Part shown: piece after piece, positions 227 through 49,589 of the stretch | Layout: each line of letters begins with the position of its first letter | How positions within the stretch are numbered: position 1 is the first letter of the stretch | Assembly: GCA_000934665.2 (NCBI GenBank) | Contig: JYFJ02001034.1 | Location: 1 to 64,000 of the forward strand | Source: Catajapyx aquilonaris | Lineage: Eukaryota | DNA: 64,000 nt | Direction of reading: 5' to 3' | Notes under the pieces: model-generated | The model's database searches: none | The model's input: only the letters and a program-made list of their open reading frames with translations | What the model was told of the DNA's origin: nothing | Translations under genes and position numbers: made by a program

Positions 227-3200
227 AGGATTGAGGGTGGATGATGGCTCGTGGCCAGACGTTGCCTCGTAGCTTCCAGGGTTCAGGTCCTGGCTGGACA
301 GCAGAGGCGACAGGACGGACATCTCCTCCAGTCGCTCCTTGTGACTCCAGGTCCATAGTTTGTAAAATGTACTCACGATCCTGCAAATTAATCGGCATCA
401 ATATTATAATTATTAGCTGTTTAAAATAAATAAATTTGGTTACGTTTTTGCATGGCAGGCGATGAACGTGATTAGTACCAAGCCAACTATGCAGATTATG
501 ATGGCGGCTTTTGCCGGTTCGGAGAGATTCTGAAGGGTGTGGAAGATGGTGGGTGATGGCTGGACTGTGCGGATAATTGTTTCAGTTGGCGTAACGGTCA
601 TGGGGATTGTGCAGATAATAAGTTACCTTGAAGTCTGATCCAACTGGTCACCCACTTCAACTGCAGGTCTACCTGGGTGACCTCGCATGTCCAAACGCCA
701 GCCATGTCTTTGGCGACGGGGTCCAAAGTTTCAGTGTCCAGCTGAAAACATTGCGACGTTAGACTCCGGATGTACGAGCATTGGCTAGCTACATACCACG
801 TGGGGTAGCACAATCCCGTAGTCCACGTGCAGATTGTCATTTAGGAACCACCGCAGCTGCAGTTCGTTGTAAATCAAACCCAATATTTCTCCGTTGCACT
901 TGAGGTCAAAACTATCTCCCTCTATTGCGGAGTGGGTTTCATTCGTGGTTCTTACTACCACAGCAATCACTTCTACGGCAGTCCGTTTGTGCCTCGCGCT
1001 CTCAAATGTGCAGACGTACAAGCCAGTGTCTTCTGGTTCGGCAGGCCAAATTTCTGAAATGCACAGAGATTACTTCAGACATGTTCAGTGGATCAACCTT
1101 CCATACTTACTAAGTTCGCTGTGGTCTTCAGCCATAGTCAACCTACTGTTTGCCTTGATGTCCTCTTCGGACAAGTGGACAGCGTTTTTCATCCAGAATA
1201 TTTTGGATTCAGGCGACTGGGACTTTAAAGTAGCGATAATGTCAGACGGGCAGGTGAGGGTAACCGGGTTTCCTACATCCACATCCTTATTTCTGGCCTG
1301 TTCCGTCAACCTCTTCCGCAACTCCTTCATAACCTCTGCAGGCAGGAAATATGCAGTTGTAACAGACGCTTAGCATGGAAGCAGCAGCATTATTACCCCT
1401 AGAGGCATCGCCGCACTGGAATTCATTGCACCGTCCAACCATCTCATCCTTCCCCATGCAAGGAGCGCCAAACAGCTGGCCCGGCGTGGGATTGGTGCAG
1501 TTTCGAGTGCGGACGCCTGTTCCTCCACCGCAGGTCACTGAGCACCGCCACTCGGACCAGTCGGACCATCCCCCATCTCGAGGCTCCTCATCCAAATCTG
1601 CGCAAAATTTTCCAGAAAGGAAAGACGCGACATCACAACAAACATGGGCAGTAGCATTTACCTGGAGGGTCCGGACAACTAAAGGCCCAATACAAGGAAA
1701 CTTTTGGCTCCGAAGCAAGGCTGACCCACCAAACCGGAAAGTAACTTCCTGTCCACTTTGCCAGTTCCTCACCGAAGGACTGGATAACCAAGGATTCCCC
1801 TGTGTACCTTAAATTTGTGAGACAGAAAAATGTAAATGTGCGTATGATGACAAACGAAGGTGTGCACATTACCTAATATCAATCTGCTTCCATCTCTTCG
1901 TGTCCAATATATTCGATGAAAGCGACCTCTCGTCTACCACGGACGTTCCATTTTTATCGTAAAGTCTCAAGAACGTCTTACTCTCACCCCCTGCGTCTAT
2001 TGTGAGTTCAAGATAATCTCCATCGGGTGACTGGTAAAAAGCTATTTTGGCACCCTGCTTCCCTCTGACGTACAATTGAATGACATGATTCGTGGCATCA
2101 TCAGCCATTCCCGACCACATGTGAATGGGGAAATACGTGGTGTATTCCGGATCCCTCGTTATCATCACAATGCAAGCTGCAATAAGAAATATGACCCTTG
2201 CTAATCCGATTCGCCAACGCATTTTGTAAGAATCTCGGAAACGTACTGTCGCAACTCCCCAAGTTCCAAGCCAGCGGGTTGTTTCTTCCCGACGAGAAGG
2301 TGATGAAATTTGCCACAAATTTACTGTTTGTATGATCCCAGTGCTCCAGCAACGGTAAAACGTTGCCCAAACGTCCTAACTACGAATTTAAAATGTGGTT
2401 CAGTGCAGAACGACAATGACAAAATCAGCTAATTATTTGGCTCGTCAAACCTGGATTCTTCCTCCGATTGCTTGCACCCAGAATCCACTCCAGGCACCCG
2501 TAGAAATGTAGCGTGTCACCAACTTCTCCTTTAGCATAGTTTTGACTCCTTTAAAGCAAAATGCATGGCCGTTATTGTGAACAAATAGATTAACCATGTT
2601 GTATGAACATGAGCGATTCGCATTGCTCGATTGTGACTTTCGCTCGAAACAATTGGATTCATTGCTCAGCGATGCTCATTGCTGATCGAATCGCTCACAT
2701 GTAAACGTGGCCGGAGTTTCCGAAGAAAGACAGTGATTTACCTTCTTGCACAGAATAAATGGCAGACCTTGCCTCCTGGAGGCCTGCCGCTCCGATCTCG
2801 ATTTCATACATCTTGTTTTCGTTCCACTTCATGTAATGGCTATCTCTGAGTTGGATCACTGCCCCGCCGTCGTTGTCCCAGTCCCAGCTCCTCAACCAGA
2901 AGACTGACCTGGTCTGTCTCCACTCCAGAGGAATCGCCATAATGTCGGATGACTTATTGTGAGTGAATATGACGCACTCTCTCTCTCTATCTATGGGAGG
3001 ATCATACTTGTCATACTGGCGTCCCCCTCTGTCGCTGCACTCGGGGATCAGGCAGACTTCACCAGTCGACACATTTGCGGTGACGCACCATGGCCCGCCT
3101 AAACGGTTGTCGGGATTTCGACAGAATGAACCCGCCTTTTCCAGATCCATCTCACCAGTGTTCTGCAATAACGTGGACTTTAATAATTGTGTAGTTAGAT

Positions 3201-6174
3201 CCATGGTAATTTTATGCACTTGCCACATTGCCTTGGACATCTGCCCATGATAAACAAGCGAAACCGGATCGGCTTGTTGCTATGTTTCCCTCGTACATGT
3301 CACCAATCAGAGACGTGAGGCACTCTGAAACGAGAACCAAATGAAGCAAACCTGACACCAGAATGACCTGTGCTGTGATCCAACCTGACACAGCGACACA
3401 CAATTTGCAATCTACACAAATTATTACAATCAGGTGATGGCCAAACCAAATAAACCGACAATGTCACCTCCTGGGAATCGAATACCCACCATCTTGGTCG
3501 CACTTTTTTGACTGGCACGATTCCTTCATGTAACCTTTTACGATCGTATAGCACCACAGTCCACCTTTAGTGGCATCTGGATTTCGGCAATAGTTCCTGT
3601 TTTCTTCCGCAGATGTACTTTCAGGAAATTTCTAGAAACAAAATTTAAGATATTTGCATTTAAAACTCTAATGCCAATAAAGCAGGACAATTCATGTGCC
3701 GCACAGTTTTACTTATTGCGCCAAGAAGGTGACTTACGTAGTCTTTATCAGGATCTCGTGCATTCGTTGGTGCTATACTGTTCCAAGGTTCACACATTTT
3801 GCCTGTCTGTGTAACGTACAAGCGGCCCTCATAGTCCGTTCCAAGTCCACTGCCGCACTCGTCTTCATCTGAGAACATGTATTGGCCTGCACCTGAAGTA
3901 CAGTAGGACAATGCATACACTGAACAATTCTACATAATGCATCTTCAGTACACCTACAGTTAGGTGAGCACTGGAATATCCAATGCACAACCGCATGCCT
4001 GAAGGAATGGACTCCAAACCATACAACGCTTTTGAAAAAGTCATGCTTTGCTCTAAAAATCTCTGTCGCCCTTAGCATGGTGTGATGAACTAGCTTCATG
4101 CGTCCGGATGAAGAAATCCTGCAACACAACTTCTGTTTAATACCAACATTACAAAAGGGCTCCACATGACTGAAGACCAGCCTACTCACGTAAGAATATA
4201 TTTACTCCACTCAAAGTAATGAAACATCCGCGTCAGATTTCTTTTATCGACAGCAAATTTTTGTGGAACCTTACCATCGGTGCAGCTAACAGTCACAGAG
4301 TTCAGCTCCAGAAGTATCTGCAAAAGACAACTCGAGTCACGACTCCCACTTCAATCCCTCGTAGTAAAAAACACGTTGAAACACTTCTAAAGCATGCTAC
4401 CTGGCAGCTCCTGAAAGACTCATCTATTCTTCTCCGCAAAAGGATCTTGCCACCTTCCGCCATTGCTCGGACATGAAATTCCAGAACCCTCGTCTCATCT
4501 CTCTGCTGCAGCCGCCGAAAGAATCCCTCTTTGTCGTCAATTGTGGTCAGAACTTGGCACGGCTGAGGTTGATCTTCATTGCAATTTACCCTCCACAGAA
4601 ATGGAGCTGCCTGCTCCGTGTAGACAGAAATAAAACTGAAGGGCAAAGTAACTTGATGCGGAACTTCGTAGGTCGCAAAATTTACTGGGTCGCCTCGTTC
4701 TCGAACAGAGACGAACATTGACTCACTGTTAGGCACACTGTGAAGAGTAATGTGAAGGTGGAGCCATTTCAGGTGGCTAATACGCCTTCGTGTAAGGTCG
4801 TAGGTCTATATGAAACGGAAATGGCCAATTATTTACCAACTATTTACAACATGAGATTGCATCGCTATACTTACACCCCTCGTCAAGGTGGAAGGGAATA
4901 TATCCAACGAGATATTCCTGATGCCATTAAGTATCCCATCTTTTTTTCCGATCACAATTTCAATGACATTTTCTTTTGGGCTGGGAATAGCCATGGCTCT
5001 CAAAGCAACAACAGCAGTCGCTGTGACGCCTTTGAATGTCCAGGCTCGGATTGAAACATTCCAGTTATTTTTAGTCTCATCTACGTCGATAAAAAACTGT
5101 CCGGGTTGATTATCTTTCATAACTCCCGACGTGGCGATTGTGCAACCTTCTGGAATAATAATTGAATATGGTTGAACAACATATCTCACCAAATTTAACA
5201 CAATTAATCTATTACCATCATCTCGATTGCAGAAAGGAATGTTGCATGGCTCCCAGTCCTCTGCATTTTCACCAATGTAGCAAAACGGACCTTGAGGCTG
5301 TGCCTCAGGGTTGCGGCAGTGTGACCCTGCCTGCTTCGCAGAGCCATCAGGAAATTCTTTATCCTGCCAGTTCAATGGAGGAATCATGAAGTGTTAAGTA
5401 TTGTCACAAACATAAGCAATTATTTTTGACGCACCGGCGGAGGTCGTGGTAGAGTACTCCAAGGAATGCAGGATGCACCACTCACAGTGCGACTCACATC
5501 TCCTGCATATTCCTGGCCAGTGCCGGTCACCCGACAAGCTGCGGAAGAAAGGCTTTAAAATGAACTGCCGACATAATCAGCAAGATCATGTTTTAATGGT
5601 CCGTGCACTTATTTTGCAAACAGAATATTTACAAAGTGCGTCACACTGAAGCAAGCAAGATGCGTTACCTCTGAACTCACAAAACGGGACGTCACAATCC
5701 TCCCGGCCTACTGGATGCAACGTGTAACACCACGGAGACTTATCCTCTCCGATATTTGGTTGGCGGCAGTAATTTTTAGCTCTACTCAACGACACATCGG
5801 GGAAGTTGGCGACGTCCTGCTCCCCTGTCTGTAACAGGTTAGTTCATACAAATGTGCTCCACAACAATATTCTCCGAAGGAAAAGTTTAGAAAATGGCGA
5901 TATTCATTACCGGTATTTGATTAGGCGTGTTTCTTTCCCAATGTTGGCATAACCTTCCCGACTTTGTCCGCCGAATAATCCCATTGTAATCTAGAGCTCC
6001 AGCAGTCACTTTACAATGAAGGAGATCCTCTTCTTTAGTCGCTAGGGAATAAAGGTACGAAGCATTAAGCACAATACTCCTCACGAGAACAACTACTGGC
6101 TCACCTACAAGGCCGCATGTAAGTGGCGGCAGAGCGAATAGTATAAATACAGTGATTAATGTAAAATCCAGCAT
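212..6174 (-). CDS. Multi-exon type I membrane protein: signal peptide, (kringle-kringle-FAMeT-like-FAMeT-like)x2, TSP1, two Ig-like domains, TM, short cytoplasmic tail
   Basis: Signal peptide MLDFTLITVFILFALPPLTCG (ATG 6174). Four kringles with NYCRQP..SPWCY, HCRNPE..GPFCY, NYCRNPD..GLWCY, FCRNPD..GPWCV. Methyltransf_FA-like segments (YEIEIGAAG, WSGFWVQAIGGRIQLGRLG, NILDTKRWKQIDIR). TSP1 DGGWSDWSEWRCSVTCGGG..RTRNC. Ig motifs VTLTC..W..DTGLYVC and DLKC..W..AGVWTC. TM AIIICIVGLVLITFIAC. Last exon ends ..LNPEANE, TAA at 214-212. Junctions I checked are GT-AG; not every internal exon was resolved. Confidence 0.8.
2606..2713. mobile_element. Degenerate short MITE (Harbinger-like GGCCACGTTTACATG end), related copies at ~58690-58830 and ~60984-61090
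   Basis: Imperfect inverted repeat gagcgattcg / cgaatcgctc, terminus catgtaaacgtggcc. The core aaacaattgg..cat(t/c)gctcagc is shared with the GST intron copy. Confidence 0.45.
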
Positions 6175-10683: not shown

Positions 10684-24934
<14,251 letters not shown>

Positions 24935-26225: not shown

Positions 26226-26521
26226 GAAAAAGTCTTATAGCACGGCTCTGTCTGTCTGGTCTGGGGGGAATGGGCGGTCAGGGGTCGAGGGTGGTTGGGG
26301 GAGAGGGCAGCCAGGGGGCTCGGAAAAAGTCTTGTAGCACAGCTCTGTCTGTCTAGTCTGGGGGGAATGGGAGGTCAGGGGTCGGGAGGGGGGAGGGCAG
26401 CCAGGGGGCTCCGAAAAAATCTATTATAGCACGGCTCTGTCTGCCTGTCTGTATCTGTCTGTGGACAGGTATCAGACAGACAGACAGAGCCGTGCTATAA
26501 GACTTTTTCCTTCGAAAAAGT
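26226..26521. mobile_element. Element with three direct copies and one inverted copy of gaaaaagtcttatagcacggctctgtctgtct, a (GTCT)n microsatellite and a 3' hairpin; DINE-1/Helentron-like
   Basis: Copies at ~26226, ~26323 and ~26413, inverted copy ending at 26509, hairpin actttttc-cttc-gaaaaagt. Confidence 0.55.
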
Positions 26522-26558
26522 TAGCAGTTCGTTCAAAATGGCGGCAATAAAAGTAAAG

Positions 26559-26691
26559 TTCCTTACGCATGAGGCGAAGAAATTAGCCTCCAACAGAGGT
26601 GCTAAGCTATAGAGGGGAGTGCGAGTCATTGCATCAGGGGGAAACAGCACCTCTGTTCGAGGCTAATTTCTTCGCCTCATGTAGTAAGGAA
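26559..26691. mobile_element. Palindromic MITE-like element
   Basis: ~45-bp arms ttccttacgcatgaggcgaagaaattagcctccaacagaggtgct / agcacctctgttcgaggctaatttcttcgcctcatgtagtaaggaa. Confidence 0.75.
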
Positions 26692-26747
26692 ATCCTTTAA
26701 CCGACTGTACTTTTATTGGCAACTCGAAGTGATTGAGTGTGAGGTGT

Positions 26748-26871
26748 GAGCCGTGCAAGTAAGAAAAGGTAGGCCTTGAGTGACGTCACCGGCTGGGGGG
26801 CAATGGAGAAAAGGCTTGTCCCCCAGCCAGTGACGTCACCCAAGGGCTACCATTTCTTACTCGCACGGCTC
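26748..26871. mobile_element. Palindromic MITE-like element with two TGACGTCA sites
   Basis: Arms gagccgtgcaagtaagaaa..gtgacgtcaccggctgggg / ccccagccagtgacgtcac..tttcttactcgcacggctc. Confidence 0.7.
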
Positions 26872-27225
26872 GCATCATTTCGATTTGAAATTATGCCGCA
26901 GCGGGAAATGTCGCTAGCAGTATGCAGCACTACTGTATACACCAGTTCCTTCTAGTTCAAACGGACGTGCATTGTTACAGTGTTGCAGTCCTGGCAACAA
27001 TGGGTGACGTCAACCCTGCTGGTTGCACTGTTCAACTCTGGGTGGTTATTGCGATGTTAATCCAGCGCTTAACACAACAAATGACAGGTACACACTACGC
27101 CACATCTGCGACTTCACGACAACAATGAGCTACCACCCGGAGACAACAATGTGCTGGCGGGTATTGTACTGTGTTTCAATACTATCCAGATGTGTGTCAA
27201 TACAGATGAGTTAGATAACACCCAG

Positions 27226-27270
27226 GGTATCACGTAACGCATCTCTTTCTAGACAGTATATAACACCAGG
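27226..27270 (+). promoter_or_regulatory. Promoter of secreted gene A: GGTATCACGTAA motif plus TATA box (TATATAACACCAG)
   Basis: The same two motifs recur upstream of gene C (31931 GGTATCGCGTAA; ~31998 TATATAACACCAG). Gene B has TATATAAG at ~29082. Confidence 0.6.
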
Positions 27271-27307
27271 GGACCAAGGTGATAGTCCAGAAGACTTGTT
27301 GGCAGCC

Positions 27308-28548
27308 ATGAAAGTCTTCCTCATACTCGTGCTGTTGGCCACTGTCGCCACTGCAGACCTCGTCAACAAACGGGTAAGTCTAAGTGGAAGGTATGCGTAC
27401 CATTTCAATGACTATCATTGTTACAGAGCGATGTTGGACAAGAGGACGATGGCTCAGGCGGTGAGGAACAGTTCGGTAAGTACCGGTACGGCCAGAGAGT
27501 ACTCCGAAGACATGGTACATGACCATATTTGCAGATGAAGCAGTGGAAGCAGAAGTAGAAGAAGAGTTGGAACAGGAGGCTGAACAGGAGGCTGAACAGG
27601 AAGCTGAACAGGAGGCTGAACAGGAGGCTGAACAGGAAGCTGAACAGGAGGCTGAACAGGAGGCTGAACAGGAGGCTGAACAGGAGGCTGAACAGGAGGC
27701 TGAACAGGATGCTGGACGTGCCCGTCGACAAATTTACAGTAAGTTGACCCACATGTTCCACTAATGGTCATCTATTCCTTCGACATTACCTTGCAGTGGG
27801 GGACACTGACCCGGACAGCAACAAGCAGTATGCGGAGGACTTCAATCCGGGTATGCAGGACGATGGGACAATCGGGGATGGCCATGAGGGACATGGGGCC
27901 GATCCAAGTATGGCTGATGGCGTGCTGGAAGGAGGAGGAGGAGGAGACGGTGGTAATGGGTCATCAGGTGGATTGACGCCAGACCTTGGCCTTGGTGGAG
28001 GTGAAGGAGGGTCAGGAAGCGACGGAGGGTCAGGGAATGACGGAGGTTCTGGCGGATCAGGAGGGATGGTACCAGAGTTACCAGACCTTGGTGGTGGCGA
28101 TGGAGGTGACGGAGGTGGAAATGACGGAGGTGGAAATGACGGAGGGTCCGGAGGGATGGTACCAGAGTTACCAGACCTTGGTGGTGGCGATGGAGGTGAC
28201 GGAGGTGACCAAGGTTCATCTGGGAGTGACAGCGGGTCAGGAAATGACAACACCAACACTAACGATGGCCACAACGACAACAACAACAACAACAACAACA
28301 ACAACGGCGGACACAACGACAACCATCATCACAGTGGAGAACACAACAACAACAACAATCATCACAGTGGAGAACAACACAACAGTGGACACAGCCATGG
28401 ACAACCCCAAGGTCATGGCCAGCAGGCTCATGGAGGGTCACACCGAGGTGGTGGATTTCGTGGAGGTCATGGTCGTCCTAGAGGACATGGCCGTGTAGGA
28501 TTAATTGGTTTTAGGATGGGCCATGGTGGAGGCAGAAGGGGTCATTAA
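27308..28548 (+). CDS. Secreted low-complexity protein A; exons 27308-27373, 27427-27475, 27535-27738, 27797-28548
   Basis: Signal MKVFLILVLLATVATA, KR site, acidic prosegment with ~12 EQEA-type repeats, RARR-QIY, GDGHEGH, Gly/Asp repeats (GGMVPELPDLGGGDGGDGG x2), Asn/His run, Arg/Gly/His tail. Canonical splice sites, upstream TATA, downstream AATAAA. Confidence 0.85.
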
Positions 28549-29138
28549 TTAGGTGTCCCTTAATTAACTGGTACATGATGTGAATTCGAAACAGTAAATG
28601 TACAAGTACAATAAATGTTTATGCATAGAACCATGAAGTAGTGTCATTGGCTGTTAACATGTTTTTCTCCCCATCCCTTCAATGACTCCCTTGTAACGAT
28701 CCTACATACAAGATAACAGACAATAGAAATCATCTGAGCAATGCTAATTACTTTTACTCATTACAAAATATTCTGCATCACTATACTTATTGCGCCACAT
28801 ATAACAATGAAACATCGAACTGAATTAAATTGTTGCCACGTACGTCTCAGGTATTGAAAACTCACTTTTCCAATGCCAACACCGCATCTGGTTGTAACAA
28901 TACTTCATTTATAAAACCTTCATGTAAACCACATTACATTTTACAAGCCCGCATGTTACGCAAGTGCTGCGTAAGTGTGGTAGCTGCGTACATGACAACA
29001 ATGTCAGCATCAATCAACACACAATAAGTGACTAACACCTGTTGGCAAATGGTACTTCCAAGATTGGTATCTTCAGCACCATATATAAGGACCTGATCTC
29101 CGCCGTACCCTACACACTGTACACTGTACGACACCACC

Positions 29139-30132
29139 ATGAAGTTCTTGGTACTATTCGCCTCCCTGATGGTGGTCACCTCCGGCCAGCTTGGGGTAAG
29201 TCCACCATCCGATTGTTTGATATATAGTGGTTCATTGTTTGACCTCTACTTCCAGATGTACGTCCCTCCTATGTTCTGGCAGTACTTCCAAATGATGCAG
29301 GGTATGATGATGAATGGTAAGACCTTCCATATGTCGTTTTGGGACAATATGTAAGCCATTTAATTGCAGGAGGACTAAACGGCGGAGGCCGTTATTACTA
29401 CCCTGGTTATCCAGGACAGTACGCTGGAATGGGACAGTATGACGGACCTGGAATGGGACAGTATGACGGACCTGGTATGGCACCATCTGACGAACCTGAT
29501 TACGAGTCGTACACCACAAGCCAATATGAAGATATGCCGGGATACACCACTGATGGGCAGACCTTTCAGCGAAGGCAAATTGGTAAACACTCTGAGCGGC
29601 AAATGAGACAGTCCACTACTAATTAGTGTCATTGTTCATTTCAGGATTGGGCGGAGGTGGATTGGGTGGAGGTGGTGGTGGATTGGGCGGAGGCGGATTG
29701 GGCGGAGGCGGAGGTGGTGCTGGTGATGGTGCTGGTGGCGGTGCTGGTGATGGTGCTGGTGGTGCTGGTGACGCGTTAGGAGGGGGTGGGGGTTTGGGAG
29801 GAGCAGGAGACATGTTAGGAGGTGATGGTGGGTCAGGCGGGTCTGGTGGGTCTGGTGGGTCAGGTGGGTCATCGGGAACGGGTGGAGGCGACAGTCACGA
29901 CGATAACGACAGTCATCACAGTAGTGACAACAGTCATGACGACCATGATGACGGTCATGGTAATGGTGGTAACAGTCATGACGACAATCATGATGACGGT
30001 CATAGTAGTGGTGGCAACAATCATGGTGGCAATCATCATGGTGGCAGAATAATTCATGGTCGCGGCAGAAGTCATGGCGGCGGCGGCGTTCGTGGTGGAC
30101 ACGGAGGTCGTAACGGCGGACATCATGGTTAA
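29139..30132 (+). CDS. Secreted low-complexity protein B; exons 29139-29195, 29256-29316, 29370-29582, 29645-30132
   Basis: Signal MKFLVLFASLMVVTSG, Met/Tyr/Gln-rich exon 2, Tyr/Gly repeats (GMGQYDGP), FQRR-QIG, poly-Gly, His/Asp block, Arg/Gly/His tail. Confidence 0.85.
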
Positions 30133-30478
30133 ACCGATGGACATGAAATGGATGGATATGACGTCGACTCGGAATGTTAAAATTAAGCGTATACCACATG
30201 GTACTGTACTGTACCACATTGCATTACCGCAGCACTGTTTCAGTAAAGTGACCAACACCTTACATGACAGTCATGTGTACAATGTATCAGCAAATTAATA
30301 AAAATTCAATGGCTTAATAAATCAATTTCATTTACCTAAAAAATCCTATGATGATGATGGTGAAGATGATGATGATGTCTCCATGAGAAATATTACAACT
30401 CATCAGGTGGACTGATGGATACAGGCTTCTAGTACTTAATTATTACTAGAACAATGCATGATGATCACTGAAACTGTA

Positions 30479-30771
30479 TGCTTATAATAAATAAGCACAA
30501 AGTTTGTTGGTATGTTTGTCCGGGCTACCTAATCCCCTTTCGGACTACTGAGAGTACTGAAACCTGGCACACTGACGTCTTGCGTGCGGATAATTGAAGG
30601 GAAAGTCCGAAAATTGCAGTTTTTTAGGGTTTATTTTTATTTCTTTCTTTTTTATTATCTTAGGGGGGGGTGGGAATACCACCATACAGATTTTAAAGTT
30701 TAAACACCCAGATGATTTTTAAAAAAATTTGGTTTTATGAATCACCGTGCGAAGAACGGATTCCCTGCTAG
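30479..30771 (+). mobile_element. Non-autonomous Helitron-like element
   Basis: 5' TATAATAAAT..TTTGTTGGTATGTTTGT, 3' hairpin ccgt-gcgaaga-acgg followed by CTAG|T. The 5' boundary is approximate. Confidence 0.55.
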
Positions 30772-30990
30772 TTTACTAATGTAGACCTATAGCATTTTCT
30801 TATATAAAGAACTACACGTGTCAACTCAAGATCATACAACACGGCAAAGTCACAGTGTTCTGCTTGTAAAGTCCAGCCCTACCTTACCAGATGGCCATTT
30901 CCGCAAGAACTTGTGTACCTTTATGAACCCATAAATTGGGCTTTCAATGCTCAAGATTGCAACTCTAAAATTTTTGAAAATAAAGTTTAC

Positions 30991-31679
30991 AATGGGGAAG
31001 TAGCCTTCATTTTGGAAACTACACAACAAATTCGCCCATATTTTTTGGATTTTTTTGGCGTATTCCGTTTTAAGATATCAGTTTCAGTTCCGGAGATATT
31101 GGCCTTTTTTCGTAGGCAAATGGTGACGTCACTGTTTGCCTCGAAAATGTTGACGTCACGCAAAGTGAAATGAACGCAAAAATGATGTTATAGAACGCGC
31201 CCTGGCAGGGTCGTAAAATAATTCGTTGTACTGTGCTGGACACGGCTGGACATTTGAGCACTCCAAGTGTTGACTTAGTTGCCAGGTAACGGGCGTGTTT
31301 TTACTCTAAGCCGCTCAAAACGCTTTGTACGTGGCAGTGATGCCACCAGCTCGGAAATATCTGTCTCCCGAATTAGGCACATGAAGGCCCCTTTTCTCCA
31401 CCTCGATGGCCTACAGCTTCCTTGCGAATGCTTTCCGTCGTGTCCGCGGTTAATTCAAAGTCAAATTCCTCATATCTCGCAGTCAACCAGGCATTTCAGT
31501 GTACCCTTTCGATTGGCACCACCCGGCTGCCCCGTTTTTCCCGCCAATTTTGAAGGCACTTTTAAATGTGCCGTAATTTATCCAGTAATGTCATTTTGAT
31601 GCAACAGAGTGATGGAATGTATGTTTACAGGCATGGGCTAGCTAGTTATGAACAACCAGACCAAGGCTACTTCCCCATT
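30991..31679. mobile_element. Non-autonomous DNA transposon remnant with 17-bp TIRs (possibly Kolobok-like)
   Basis: aatggggaagtagcctt (30991-31007) / aaggctacttccccatt (31663-31679), with TTAA overlapping the right end. Confidence 0.6.
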
Positions 31680-32084
31680 TAACCATGTTGCTTACTATGC
31701 ATTTACGTACGTAGTTTGAGTCGTGCGATAAGACTTATTCAGTACAGCAAACATATTTTTTATAATATTTTTTTTGTATGCAATTTTTAAAAGGTACGGT
31801 TATGACACAATATACTTTCCCATGCAGTCATTGCATTGTACATTTTGTACTTGTCTTGTAAGTATCCAGATGCTTATGATAGACACAAAAAACATTGTGT
31901 AACAAGTGCCTGGTGCTGCACCTGTAAGTTGGTATCGCGTAATACCCCCGTTATTCCATCCTTTTGAAGCGCAAATATGATATGAATCGTACCAATGTTA
32001 TATAACACCAGATCAGAAGAGGTACCAAGACCAGTCAAGTCGTCTCAAGACCATCGGTACGGTGTCCCTGTCCTGAGCACAACC

Positions 32085-34658
32085 ATGAAGCTGGTCGTGT
32101 CTGTCCTTCTTGCTGTTGCGACGTTGGGATCCAGTATGCACATACCGGTATGTCAATCAAGTACCGTGTGTTTCATAATTTTCTGTACGATGTTCAATGA
32201 AACACTGACCACAATATTTACAGGATGATGTCTGGGTGCCTGATTTCCTCAGAATGATTCAAGACACGCTGATATCAGGTAAGTCCAACAATGAACGTCT
32301 GTGACAGCTGATTGTTGGTGTCCATTTTCCAGAAGGGTTTGTCCAGTCTGAGAAGGACAATGCCAACAGTACAACAGTACCACAAGAAGAAATTCGTGAA
32401 CGACGACAACAGGGTACGTCAACTGTATTGTTATTAATTGGTGACAATGGATGTGCATGGCTCATAATTTGTCACTGTTTTCCGGAGCAGTTGGCGACGG
32501 TCATCCTGGACACACTGCCAATGCAGACGACGCCAACAATGCTGGAGGTGACGGAGGAGCGGACACGTCGGCTGGCAACAATGCAGGGGTCGATGGCAAC
32601 AAAGATGTCAATACCGACGTGGGCGCAGACAAAAATTTGGAGGCTGGAAATGGCGTAGACGCAGGCGCCAGTCCGGATGTTAACAATGACGTTGGAGTTA
32701 ACAAAGATGTAGGTCTAGACAACGGCGTAGACGCAGGCGCCAGTCCGGATGTTAACAATGACGTTGGCGCCAGTAAGGATGTAGGTCTGGACAACGGCGT
32801 AGACGCAGGCGCCAGTCCGGATGTTAACAATGACGTTGGCGCCAGTAAGGATGTAGGTCTAGACAACGGCATAGACGCAGGCGCCAGTCCGGATGTTAAC
32901 AATGACGTTGGCGCCAGTAAGGATGTAGGTCTGGACAACGGCGTAGACGCAGGCGCCAGTCCAGATGTTAACAATGACGTTGGCGCCAGTAAGAATGTAG
33001 GTCTAGACAACGGCGTAGACGCAGGCGCCAGTCCAGATGTTAACAATGACGTTGGAGTCAGCAAAGATGTAGGTTTGGATAATGGCGTTGACGCAGGTGT
33101 TAATCCTGATGTTAACAATGACGTTGGCGCCAGCAAGGATGTGGGAGTAGACAATAACGCAGACGTAGGAGCCAGTCCGGATGTTAACAATGACGTTGGG
33201 GCCAGCAAAGATGTCGAGCTTGATAATGGCGTGGATGTCAGTGACAGCAAGGACATTAACAATGACGTTGGGGCCAGCAAAAATGTCGAGCTTGATAATG
33301 GCGTGGATGTCAGTGACAGCAAGGACATTAACAATGACGTTGGGGCCAGCAAAGATGTCGAGCTTGATAATGGCGTGGATGTCAGTGACAGTAAGGACAT
33401 TAACAATGACGTAAAAGCCAGCAAAGATGTTGGATTGGATAACGACGTGGACGTCAGTGACAGCAAGGACATTAACAATGACGTAAAAGCCAACAAAGAT
33501 GTTGGACTGGATAACGACGTGGACGTCAGCGACAGCAAGGATATTAACAATGACGTCAAAGCCAACAAAGATGTTGGACTGGATAACGACGTGGACGTCA
33601 GCGACAGCAAGGACATTAATAATGACGTCAAAGCCAATAAAGATGTCGGACTAGACAATAACGTAGACGCAGGTGTTAATCCAGATATTAACAATGACGT
33701 CAAAGTCAACAAAGATGTTGGATTGGACAACAACGTGGACTTAGGAGATGACCAAGAGTCTGGCACATCTGACGATGATTCCAACACCGGCAGTGATGGT
33801 GGTTCTGCAGGGAACAGCAATTCCAACAGCAACGATGGTAAAGATGGCGGTACAGGCAATACAGGAAATGACAACGGCAACGGAGGTTCTACGAGCAATG
33901 GTGGCGATGAAGGTTCTGGCAATCAAGGCGGTAATACGGGAGGATCCAACAATGATGGCAGCAATGGAGGTTCCAACGACAGTGGGAATACTGGAGGTTC
34001 CAACAATGATGGGAGCAACGGTGGTTCCAATGATGGTGGAAATAACGGAGGTTCTAATAGTGGTGGAAATAATGGAGGTTCCAACAGCGGTGGAAATAAT
34101 GGAGGTTCTAATAGTGGTGGAAATAATGGAGGTTCCAACAGCGGTGGAAATAATGCCGGGTCTAACAATGGCAATAACAATAATAACAATCACAATGACT
34201 ATCATAACAATCACAATGACAATCATAACAATCATAATTCCAACAGCGCACAGCACGGATCTGGTCAACATGGCAACAACCACCGTGGCCATAACCAGGC
34301 CCAAAACCACGGCTACAATTCCCACAACACTGCGCAAAATAACAGAGGCCATGGAAGGGGAAGTGGTTCCAGTTATGGAGAAAACAGGGGAGGTGGACGC
34401 AACAACGGTCATGGGAGGCAAACTGTAGGAAATGGGCACAAGAATAATAATGGTGGTCGTGGAGGTCAGAATGGAAACCGTGGCAATGGTGGGCATCGGA
34501 ATAATGTCGGTGCATCAAGCAACGTTGGCGTTAATCATGGCAACGGCCGTGGTCATGGAAATAATGGAGGCAATTACCGAGGAAACACAGGTGTGCATGG
34601 CAGAAACCAAGTCCGTGCCCACGGAAACGGAGGAAGAACGAACGTACGAGGACATTAA
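32085..34658 (+). CDS. Secreted low-complexity protein C; exons 32085-32147, 32224-32278, 32333-32413, 32491-34658
   Basis: Signal MKLVVSVLLAVATLGSS, RERR-QQ, GDGHPGH, ~15 tandem 24-aa Asp/Asn/Val repeats (NGVDAGASPDVNNDVGASKDVGLD), GGSNSGGNN repeats, Asn/His block, Arg/Gly/His/Asn tail, downstream AATAAA. Confidence 0.88.
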
Positions 34659-43411: not shown

Positions 43412-44450
43412 GTCGGAGGGTGGTGGCTGGCAGGGGCAGTCGGAAGCAAGACGACGACGACACGGCCAGAGACAGAGGCACACCGGACGAGGAGGGCTCG
43501 TCAAGTCAAGATCTGGTGACGAAGGGTGGGGGGGAGGGACCAGGGACGGGAGGGGGGCGGATCGGGAAAGAGGGGGGGGGGGGGNCTCGTCAAGTCAAGA
43601 TCTGGTGACGAAGGGTGGGGGCGGATCGGGAAAGAGGGGGGGGTGCTGAAGGGCTGGTTGTAGCACAGCTGTTGTTGAGATGGGGTCACAAGTGGGGGTG
43701 CTTACTAATATAACAGTTAGTGGCAGTCGCGGGAAGGGAAAGCGGGGCCGGAAGAAGCCGCGAGGGAAGGTGAGTGACAAGTGACAGATGGGAAAATGAT
43801 TTATTGGTGATCATCACTGGTGATCCTGTGTGTGATGGGGTGCCGTCATCAAGGGTGCCTTGCTGCCAAATGACGCCGGGTGTAATCAAAATCAGCGTGT
43901 TTTCCCGCCGATGGTGCCGGTCTGCTACAGCCGAGGCGAGGTTCACACAGCAGAGTCTGCTATATCCGGAGTCAACTACAGTACATATTAATATTGCAAG
44001 TGGGTTTAATTTAAAACAATTGCGTTTAATTGAGATGGGGGGATGGCGCTTCCACGTGGCGCTTTGGTGAAGGGGATATCCATCCGCTGGCGACACTAGC
44101 GCCTCCTGTCGGCAGCGTCTCTATATTAGCGGAGGAAGAGTCGTCGAGTTTCTTGCTTGCCCGTGAGTGAGACTGAATCCGCTCCAATCCTTGCCCGATC
44201 CTTCCAGATCGGTCCAGTGCAACTGGTGTGTGGTACATCGCATTGTCTTCCCGTCAACAAAACACCCAACCCGACATATTTGCAGGTGAGGCACGCGCCC
44301 TGCGAAAGGGGGATATCCATCCGGGGCTGGGGGTATCTGCTGTGCCCCAACTTGGCCCCAATAAGCCAATTCCATGTGCCACCAGCTATTGGGCACTAAC
44401 TGTAAGTGAGACTAGGTGTAATAATAATAATTGCAGTGCGTGGCAGCAGA

Positions 44451-47400: not shown

Positions 47401-49589
47401 CTCGATTCTGCTATAGCCTACACATGTTTCATTGTAATAAACACTTTGAAAATAGGTATGTTTTCATTTTACACAGACACTTGACGTGGAATTAATTATA
47501 CAGCTAATGTGCATTTCGGAAAGTTAAGGTGTGAGTTCACTGGGTCAACAGTGTCAATGACTGTTGTAGACGTGCTCTGTTTTCAGTGGGCGGTATATTC
47601 GTACACTACGCAGGAATGTGAAATAAGCTTTATAAGCCCACCCCACAAACTCTGATATGGAAGCATTTTCAATAGATCAAGACTTCAAACCTCCACCACT
47701 GGCTATACTTGGGGATGTAAAAAATCTAGACGGCTATTTGTTGCTGTGGCAAACCAGGGTCAACCATTCCAGATGTCACCAAACCCTCAAAAAAATTGAT
47801 CGCTGGTGGACCTTGCAAGAAACAGTGCTCTTTATGCAAATTTGCAAGAAACCAATTGAAGTGTACTGTTACGCTCATGTGAAGGTCAATGTTCATGAAA
47901 TGATGTTTACGAATAGTTCTGATTGCATTACCCAGTGGTTCGATAAGGTCCTCAGGCTAAGTTTATAAAAACTAAACAGCATCTTTTGGAGAAACCCGGT
48001 GAATTCACACCCTAGCTTTCCGAAATGCACATTAGCGGTAATTAATTCAATTTTTAGTGTGCCTGTGTAAAATTACAACATAGGTTACCACTTTTCAAAG
48101 AGTTTTATAACAATGAAACATGTAGGCTATAGCAGAGTTGAGACCATATAAAAATTCCCCGTAATGGACAAGTTTCCGCTATACGCAGGGTCTGTTATAG
48201 ACAGGTTTCACTGTATTAATTCTGGGATTGCCTGGTACTATTTTCGGTGCCACCACTCAATTCTGCCCCCTCTAAAACATATGATTTCATACCAAACATG
48301 ACCATGTAGCTGGAAAGTTTATTTTCAGACTTTTGCCAGCCATATTTAACGTTACAATGATAAAATGGCCTTTAAAACTATTTAATATTTCACTGGATTC
48401 TTAAACGCCAACTTGTGTGAAAATAACATGACATACATGATAAACAGCTATAAATAAGAGCGGGATTCCGAAATATATTTTACCTGATGACCCCCATTTT
48501 GATGAATTAATTACGGGCTAATTAGACCCAGGTCTGGGGTTTTTTACGTTCAGGAATAATTCAGGAGACAATAGAAACTTCCCACCTCTATTTTGTGCTC
48601 ATGCATGTGTCTTTACAGTTTAATACGCTTCTACCTCTCACGCAAGTATTTTGTAAAGCTAATTAATATGACAAGCCTGCAATGCAAATAATGTGCTTCA
48701 CATTACACTGCACATAAGTCATTGGTAGAATCGTAATATTGAATCTCCTCACCCTTCATGCCAGTCGCCTTCCCGACACTTGCCAGTTGATGCTCCTGTC
48801 AACGACATTTGACAATGCAGTGATAGAAAAAGTGGGTGAGATGGCCAAAAAACCACTGAAGAAGATTGTCATGGATCCAGGAGACCTGAGTCTGCCCAAC
48901 ATTAGGCAACTATATGTTGACTGTGAGATGATGACTGAGAGGGAAGTCATCAGGAAGATCTTCAGCATGGGGTGGGATGGCAAAGCCATAATATTTTGTG
49001 AAAGCCTGGCCCGAGCGAGAGACCTGAAGCATTACATCATGCAATCAGTCCAGGGCTTGCGCGTGGATACGCTTCATGGGCGCCATTCTCGTCGTGAGAG
49101 AGACGCTACGCTGGCCAAGTTTAAAAATGGGTTCATCAAGGTTCTCATCACCACCAACATGCTTGCCCGCGGTATGGTCAATTGTAGGACTCTTTCTTGT
49201 AGTTCTGAGATCACCGGAGAAATTAATTGCAATTGCTTTTGGTTTTGGGCAGGGTTTGATGACATGGATGTCGGACTGGTCATCAACTACGACCTGCCCA
49301 CACTGAAAGGTGATAAACCAGACTGTAATTCCTACATGCATCGCATAGGGCGCACTGGAAGATATGGCAAGCCAGGGCTGGCAATTAACCTAGTGGGAAA
49401 GAACACTTCATCTGTGCTCAACGAAATCAAGGAGTACTGGGGTAAGTTATTGTTTTTAATTTGGTACAGGCCAGTCCTGCGGTTCAGTTGATATGTAAAT
49501 GTCCCTCTCTTTTCTCTGCAGGGCTCGAACTGGAAGTCCTCGATGTAAGCCATCAAGCGGAATTACTGAGTCTGTTTCAAAACAACTAG
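44451..49589 (+). CDS. Divergent DDX19/DDX25 (Dbp5)-like DEAD-box RNA helicase; exons 44451-44584, 44644-44733, 45325-45430, 45492-45606, 45883-46051, 48765-49171, 49253-49441, 49522-49589
   Basis: QRDRTSPFESSKDF, Q motif MGLSKPSQIQ, IAQSQSGTGKT, SPTYEVA, DEGD, STT, IIFC, VLITTNMLARG, VINYDLP, YMHRIGRTGRYGKPGLAINLV. Confidence 0.88.
46255..48556. mobile_element. Large foldback element with ~560-bp arms (left 46255-46464 plus 47187-47545; right ~47993-48556)
   Basis: The arms align as reverse complements over their length; the left arm is split by a Helitron. Confidence 0.8.
46465..47186 (+). mobile_element. Non-autonomous Helitron inserted at an A|T site
   Basis: 5' TC, 3' hairpin and CTAG end. 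Removing it gives gcccactttatca|ttatgacattaa, which matches the intact opposite arm (ggccattttatcattgtaacgttaa) with no TSD. Confidence 0.85.

Follow-up and report, generated by a model that had tools for sequence, protein, structure and literature searches.

A 64,000-nucleotide stretch of the Catajapyx aquilonaris contig JYFJ02001034.1 (positions 1 to 64,000, forward strand; termed the window herein) contains three genes lying side by side on the + strand, g1 (27308-28548), g2 (29139-30132), and g3 (32085-34658), for which models scripted from the sequence give proteins of 356, 272, and 788 amino acids, respectively. The evidence supports the view that all three are genuine paralogues built to a common plan, whose transcripts are spliced and polyadenylated. 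They constitute an undescribed family of a general kind that is already known, that of lineage-restricted, clustered, secreted low-complexity proteins. The explanation that we favor, tentatively and with a little less than even confidence, is that g1 to g3 belong to one lineage-restricted family whose products are secreted, contain no cysteine, and build up or condense a material outside the cell, for example a matrix, a coat, a glue, or a hardened part.

Each of the three genes has four exons without internal stop codons, and the intron phases are 0/1/1 in all of them. All nine introns (53 to 77 nucleotides [nt]) run from GT to AG, which bears out the original prediction of three same-strand genes with this architecture. 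Exon 1 (19 to 22 codons) encodes in each case a hydrophobic N terminus with small residues at positions −3 and −1, as judged by eye; it is a putative signal peptide exon in all three genes, in line with what had been proposed. Tandem DNA repeats are present inside all three genes, and a six-frame scan found no further Gly/His/Asn/Asp-rich frame elsewhere in the window.

Transcription of the cluster was seen in X5, an RNA-like sequencing run whose type is not on record. Contigs from X5 bear GT..AG joints at intron 3 of g1, intron 3 of g2, and introns 1 to 3 of g3, that is, at five of the nine predicted introns, and X5 coverage leaves out introns 1 and 2 of both g1 and g2. None of these five joints was found in contigs of X1, a DNA run from the same coded organism, and five of the nine predicted introns are thus confirmed. 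The g1 exon 4 region is covered by X5 at 27797-28089 and 28315-28633, and one X5 contig ends in a loose end of 21 A residues behind position 30321, just past the AATAAA signal of g2, which marks poly(A) addition. The contig depth of X5 is unsuitable for ranking expression. A TATA box lies 51, 57, and 86 nt before the ATG of g1, g2, and g3, respectively, the start codon has the Kozak-like context CCATGA in each gene, and an AATAAA signal follows each stop codon. The TATA boxes of g1 and g3 sit within an identical 13-mer that occurs nowhere else in the window; this 13-mer and the presence of all three genes in X5 are the sole basis for a putative co-regulation. A TAACACC motif near the promoters was not enriched (13 occurrences versus 8.4 expected).

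An Arg-Arg-Gln (RR-Q) site is found near the end of exon 3 in all three genes, as RARR-QIY in g1, FQRR-QI in g2, and RERR-QQ in g3, with the split codon coming next. The second Arg codon lies 10 nt (g1) or 7 nt (g2 and g3) before the exon end, confirming the expected position close to the exon 3/4 boundary. Arg residues are scarce upstream of the C-terminal tails (4, 3, and 4 in g1, g2, and g3, respectively), and RR is the only Arg pair there. It occupies residues 102-103 of 356 in g1 and 107-108 of 272 in g2, and the chains that follow it comprise 253 (g1), 164 (g2), and 724 (g3) residues. RxRR is the furin consensus, and an exposed N-terminal Gln can cyclise to pyroglutamate. All three proteins had been proposed to be processed by a convertase; the consensus R-X-[K/R]-R is matched by RARR and RERR, whereas FQRR of g2 is dibasic only.

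The part encoded by exon 4 proceeds in all three genes from an acidic through a His-rich to a basic segment. This order agrees with the original prediction; the block compositions given there hold less generally, since the acidic part of g3 is mostly an Asp/Val/Asn repeat and the middle block of g2 is composed of Asp, His, Ser, Asn, and Gly. In the anionic segment, g1 has 38% Gly and 15% Asp, g2 has 65% Gly with Leu, Ala, and Asp, and g3 has 22% Asp, 16% Val, and 15% Asn, with a Gly/Asn/Ser stretch coming next. The His-rich block contains 21 to 23% His in all three proteins, accompanied by 30 to 46% Asn in g1 and g3 and by 24% Asp and 24% Gly in g2. The tails consist of 30 to 46% Gly, 12 to 24% Arg, and 10 to 18% His, they carry charges at pH 8.1 of +8 (g1, 34 residues), +5 (g2, 28 residues), and +15 (g3, 124 residues), and the last residue of g2 is Gly. 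Over the entire chains after RR, Cys is absent and hydrophobic residues make up 7 to 14%. Gly accounts for 26 to 36% in g1 and g2, and His residues in the whole proteins number 20 of 356 (g1), 17 of 272 (g2), and 23 of 788 (g3). The net charges of the chains after RR, calculated as sums over textbook pKa values, change between pH 5.0 and pH 8.1 from −3.7 to −25.5 in g1, from +4.8 to −12.6 in g2, and from −40 to −69.6 in g3. The polyampholyte layout that had been proposed is backed by the charges calculated per segment. AlphaFold2 returned no structure for g1 exon 4 (predicted local distance difference test [pLDDT] score of 44.5, predicted template modeling [pTM] score of 0.13), which is therefore predicted to be disordered, and the acidic parts of g1 and g2 both look disordered, the prediction having been made for g1 only.

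Linear similarity among the three proteins is low, as had been noted: pairwise BLASTP with composition correction yielded a single weak match between the N termini of g2 and g3 (E 0.002), where the exon 2 peptides have a weakly aligning hydrophobic motif in common, and BLASTP with the correction off gave long collinear alignments among all three genes. Compared with 200 shuffles, local alignments of the mature parts scored z values of 7.7 for g1/g2, 7.9 for g1 against the g3 tail, and 2.8 for g2 against the g3 tail, and reversed mature sequences scored under the shuffle mean, indicating that the block order itself is common to the three genes, beyond composition. The shared block order, the tandem position, and the identical intron phases together argue for common descent with divergence past recognition.

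The acidic part of g3 contains an array of repeats, all 15 of which are 24 residues long with no length change. Among these units, the proportion of synonymous differences (pS) is 0.62 and that of nonsynonymous differences (pN) is 0.15 (pN/pS 0.24), which together with the uniform length shows the repeats to be old and constrained at the protein level; they are under purifying selection. We regard it as highly unlikely that g1 to g3 are young, fast-evolving low-complexity genes without specific function, transcribed as by-products of repeat expansion. Such an origin would fit the lack of homologues in our searches, the tandem DNA repeats in all three genes, and the high-copy element between g2 and g3; it sits poorly with g3 units that have kept a constant length and a pN/pS of 0.24 at a synonymous divergence of 0.62, with the persistence of phases, RR-Q site, and block order in three copies otherwise diverged past recognition, and with the finding that all three genes, from which spliced transcripts exist, have a TATA box, a start codon in a Kozak-like context, and a poly(A) signal.

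A single-sequence AlphaFold2 prediction for the g3 repeats gave a mean pLDDT of 72, a pTM of 0.72, and three strands per 24-residue unit, so that the repeats may form a beta-solenoid. In the model, the inward strand positions would be occupied by Val, Leu, Ala, and one Asn, and the outward or turn positions by Asp, a physically plausible register. The periodicity of the array and its conserved Val, Leu, and Asn positions are compatible with such a fold. The best VIA-align matches to the model were curli CsgA (8c50; Z 35.6, root mean square deviation [rmsd] 8.5, 355 residues) and a Ca2+-dependent beta-helical antifreeze protein (3p4g; Z 20.4, rmsd 3.4, 263 residues, 15% identity). Foldseek with the same model returned no match at an E value of ≤0.001. 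Both 3p4g, which is from an Antarctic bacterium, and CsgA are bacterial, and their repeat lengths and motifs are unlike those of g3; the likeness lies in a predicted fold that is possibly an AlphaFold2 artefact.

An acidic, disordered chain that has a single conserved dibasic site and is close to neutral at pH 5 might also indicate granin-like helpers or prohormones, in which acidic disordered chains would aggregate at low pH for granule formation and the variable pieces before RR would be bioactive peptides. The residues KR after the signal peptide of g1 and the weak hydrophobic motif common to the exon 2 peptides of g2 and g3 (the composition-corrected match at E 0.002) could be read in this way. 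We nevertheless consider this improbable, because the N-terminal pieces are unconserved among the three genes, no Gly-Lys/Arg amidation signal is present at the RR site, and the conserved layout sits in exon 4, the bulk of each protein.

Searches for relatives agreed with the earlier statement that no named family is recognizable. All of their blank results are weakened by the low complexity of the queries, since filters and word crowding can hide matches. Pfam-A, queried with exon 4 only, contained no family at an E value of ≤0.01 for any of the three translations, and the ESM Atlas held no usable match for g1 exon 4 or for residues 1 to 430 of g3 exon 4. A word-indexed search of 5.8 billion proteins with g1 exon 4 left none of 8,000 scored candidates at an E value of ≤0.001, phmmer with g2 exon 4 against 1.84 billion representatives found no match, and two metagenome scans yielded 594 and 123 pattern matches, none of which was confirmed by tblastn. 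For g3 residues 1 to 430, only one of 7,998 candidates, a protein of 478 residues with PF03781 (P0121), reached an E value of ≤0.001 (E 2e-4), and this weak match was taken as chance. The literature searched contained no described family of Gly/His/Asp-rich, furin-processed proteins.

The cationic tails suggest another possible role, namely, that the three proteins are precursors of Gly/His/Arg-rich antimicrobial peptides whose anionic region neutralizes the C-terminal tail until it is cut and released. Clustering and rapid divergence of paralogues are typical of immune effectors, and some antifungal peptides of insects are rich in Gly and His. An anionic region followed by a tail of the charge, length, and Gly, Arg, and His content given above fits such a precursor, and the terminal Gly of g2 would be a possible amidation donor. 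We consider this role unlikely, since no dibasic or R-X-X-R site separates the tail from the acidic part in g1, g2, or g3, the only earlier Arg pair being that of the distant RR-Q site. The chains after RR (253, 164, and 724 residues) are very large for such products; at 164 to 724 residues and with charges of −12.6 to −69.6 at pH 8.1, they are not small net-cationic peptides. In addition, a mere pro-piece would not need the 360 residues of constrained repeats in g3, and the searches detected no similarity to database proteins, including known Gly/His-rich antimicrobial peptides, which low-complexity filters may hide. The granin-like or prohormone role and the absence of a specific function are both less likely than an extracellular material or antimicrobial peptides. 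Immune effectors or granule helpers would all the same represent an undescribed family.

Returning to the extracellular material, we infer from the layout of the proteins that they are secreted, cleaved, and responsive to pH or metal. The signal peptide would bring the chain into the secretory path, and a convertase would probably cut after the conserved Arg-Arg, giving a product with a Gln N terminus that would essentially equal exon 4. This product would be a charge-graded chain in which a long anionic segment is followed by a His/Asn segment and an Arg/Gly/His cationic tail. At a granule-like pH of 5, protonated His residues and the tail would nearly offset the acidic part (−3.7 in g1 and +4.8 in g2), and with their charge nearly cancelled, the chains could pack by self-association. 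At a pH of about 8, His would be uncharged and the chains strongly anionic (−25.5 in g1, −12.6 in g2, and a change from −40 to about −70 in g3), leaving His and Asp free for divalent metal, mineral, or a partner polymer. The anionic segment of g3 would perhaps be a rigid, Asp-studded beta-solenoid rod and not a coil, and the His switch and counter-ions would control how the chains pack and set. If this is true, the cluster would be a self-contained, compact example of an animal lineage inventing extracellular material proteins, in which the blueprint (signal peptide, propeptide, RR-Q, acidic part, His switch, and basic tail) is preserved by gene structure amid sequence drift, and the charge layout would be a directly testable pH/metal switch of relevance to bio-inspired materials. 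The functions listed in the original prediction (glue, cement, egg coat, cuticle, mineral matrix, or immune effector) form too broad a range to be either confirmed or refuted.

Several points weigh against a role in an extracellular material. Overall, His makes up just 3 to 6% of the proteins (21 to 23% in the Asn/His blocks), far under the >25% of the jaw protein Nvjp-1 discussed below. The mature parts contain no Cys and 2, 0, and 4 Tyr residues in g1, g2, and g3, respectively, and with Cys absent and almost no Tyr, they lack the usual chemistries of covalent cross-linking. At neutral pH, a strongly anionic chain would be soluble unless counter-ions or partners are present. FQRR of g2 lies outside the furin consensus, and since no relatives were found, conservation across species is unusable as evidence. 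As for the g3 fold, the pLDDT values of the five AlphaFold2 models were 72, 71, 59, 46, and 38, exceeding 70 in two of the five, and AlphaFold2 is documented to over-predict beta-solenoids for repeats (PMC11795689).

Known extracellular proteins offer partial parallels. The shematrins of the mollusc shell matrix form clustered families of Gly-rich proteins that are secreted, combine conserved signal peptides with variable repeats, and end in a short basic C terminus. Unlike them, g1 to g3, which have no homology to shematrins, possess a block of His and Asn and an RR-Q site conserved within the chain, and, in contrast to shematrin-bearing molluscs, the host animal is to our knowledge not known to mineralize. 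Nvjp-1, spinalin, and SGEG2 serve as analogues only, membership of g1 to g3 in none of these groups being established. Nvjp-1 from the jaw of Nereis virens is a disordered, His/Gly-rich protein that responds to pH and Zn and contains >25 mol% His and about 35 mol% Gly throughout, with abundant Tyr; protonation of its His residues near pH 6 alters Asp/Glu association and metal binding (PMC9465683). Like Nvjp-1, g1 to g3 are rich in Gly, His, and acidic residues and are predicted to be secreted and disordered. They differ from it in having 3 to 6% His gathered in one block, abundant Asn, almost no Tyr in the mature parts, and charges segregated into blocks; none of the three reaches the Nvjp-1 composition of >25 mol% His and ∼35 mol% Gly (PMC9465683), and the large protein searches revealed no sequence relationship to it. 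Spinalin of Hydra nematocyst spines is likewise a Gly/His-rich, taxon-restricted structural protein of the secretory path (PMC2687796). Unlike g1 to g3, it is cnidarian and is encoded by a complex, alternatively spliced 50-kb locus (PMC2687796); our searches, which included no direct comparison with the spinalin sequence, detected no similarity to it. SGEG2 of the Artemia cyst shell is encoded by an orphan gene and consists of a signal peptide of 20 residues and a pre-peptide of 255 residues; a kexin-type site at residues 110-113 gives rise to two matrix peptides (PMC3108945). The RR of g1 (102-103) and g2 (107-108) is similarly placed. In contrast to RR-Q, the SGEG2 site is RYKR (PMC3108945); no SGEG2-like protein surfaced in the large protein searches with g1 and g2 exon 4.

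A more specific form of the extracellular material explanation, which we consider unlikely and which depends on the structural model, is that the g3 repeats truly give a secreted animal protein a beta-solenoid rod of ∼15 coils that lacks cysteine, is studded with Asp, and continues into a His/Arg tail acting as a pH switch. In that case, the cluster would combine a rigid anionic template (g3) with two disordered, charge-graded fillers (g1 and g2), and the three would jointly nucleate or harden a mineral or metal-reinforced structure specific to the lineage. It would be unusual for an animal to have a genuine beta-solenoid with an acidic face.

Table 1. Coordinates in the window of exons, processing sites, repeats, and transcription signals of g1, g2, and g3
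Feature	Position	Strand	Description
g1 core promoter	27257-27269	+	TATA box with flank; 13-mer identical at g3
g1 exon 1	27308-27373	+	22 codons; signal-peptide-like (by eye); final residues KR; phase 0
g1 exon 2	27427-27475	+	Acidic; terminates in phase 1
g1 exon 3	27535-27738	+	Glu/Ala/Gln propeptide; 12-nt unit ×12 at 27570-27714; joint 27738>27797 in X5
g1 RR-Q site	RARR 27717-27728, Gln 27729-27731	+	In exon 3
g1 exon 4	27797-28548	+	Gly/Asp acidic block; Asn/His block 28264-28443; Arg/Gly/His tail 28444-28545; stop
g1 AATAAA	28610-28615	+	X5 contig stops at 28633
g2 TATA box	29082-29088	+	57 nt before ATG
g2 exon 1	29139-29195	+	19 codons; signal-peptide-like; phase 0
g2 exon 2	29256-29316	+	Met/Gln/aromatic-rich; terminates in phase 1
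g2 exon 3	29370-29582	+	Gly/Tyr/Met/Pro-rich propeptide; FQRR 29564-29575, then Gln; joint 29582>29645 in X5
g2 exon 4	29645-30132	+	Gly/Leu/Ala/Asp block; Asp/His/Ser/Asn block 29884-30045; Arg/Gly/His tail 30046-30129; stop
g2 AATAAA signals and poly(A) addition	30297-30321	+	21-A loose end in X5
g3 core promoter	31999-32011	+	g1 13-mer; first X5 contig position 32039
g3 exon 1	32085-32147	+	21 codons; signal-peptide-like; phase 0; joint in X5
g3 exon 2	32224-32278	+	Amphipathic/hydrophobic; terminates in phase 1
g3 exon 3	32333-32413	+	RERR 32395-32406, then Gln-Gln
g3 exon 4	32491-34658	+	Including stop; short N-terminal stretch, 24-residue repeats, Gly/Asn/Ser block, Asn/His block 34167-34283, Arg/Gly/Asn/His tail 34284-34655
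g3 repeat array	32682-33761	+	15 units, exactly 24 residues each, 9 invariant positions
g3 AATAAA	34770-34775	+	Poly(A) signal

Between g2 and g3, a high-copy repeat extends over 30400-31700, where the summed depth of X1 contigs is ∼2,700 to 96,000, compared with ∼30 in the flanks, and where X1 has numerous variant letters and loose ends; the repeat probably represents a family of transposable elements present in thousands of copies. Four hairpin-like inverted repeats at 26322-26874, with arms of 33 to 59 nt that are 88 to 97% complementary, lie 430 to 990 nt upstream of g1 and look like miniature inverted-repeat elements. A cAMP response element-like palindrome, GTGACGTCAC, is enriched in the window (9 matches with ≤1 mismatch versus 1.4 expected; none of 100 shuffles reached 9). 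Its matches, at positions including 26780, 26830, 27004, 31123, and 31150 as well as 21484 and 21794, concentrate upstream of g1 and within the repeat upstream of g3, and they may be regulatory sites or simply parts of mobile elements.

According to Pfam, the window holds at least 11 other genes, encoding a kringle/TSP1 protein, an ion channel, two RRM proteins, a PX protein, a DEAD-box helicase, ThiS/MOCS2A, PDIA3, GST, a DUF1907 protein, and an LRR protein; it is part of a gene-dense animal genome with short introns. The cluster is flanked by hnRNP-like and PX-domain genes. Rfam gave no match in the window. The kringle/TSP1 gene (1287-5393, minus strand) encodes a TSP1 domain and no fewer than two kringle domains, with beta-rich stretches lacking a Pfam assignment between them. 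In the open reading frame (ORF) for the helicase C-terminal domain (48718-49491), an in-frame stretch of ∼26 residues breaks the conserved motif region; it looks like a short stop-free intron, matching the short introns of this genome. An unbroken run of 585 A residues at 13520-14104 reflects either an artefact of assembly or a homopolymer of extreme length, and the only N of the window is found at 43585, in a GC-rich stretch. At 21363-21924, two overlapping ORFs of 114 residues on opposite strands encode near-identical peptides, which suggests an element that is palindromic or duplicated in inverted orientation.

The PDIA3 exon of the window matched 640 proteins at an E value of ≤1e-20 among 1,010 candidates, and the best 120 of these were 52 to 62% identical to it; human PDIA3 scored 190 bits. 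Among the best 120 matches, 56 carried an organism name, and all of these were from arthropods except one from a sponge. An RBM18-like ORF of the window had no exact counterpart in the collection searched, and nothing in the window speaks for a chaetognath host, an idea weighed against PMC12460157 and rejected. In a FastTree phylogeny of 69 of the best 120 matches (the first 60 and 9 named ones) rooted on the sponge, the exon from the window was placed outside the arthropod clade.

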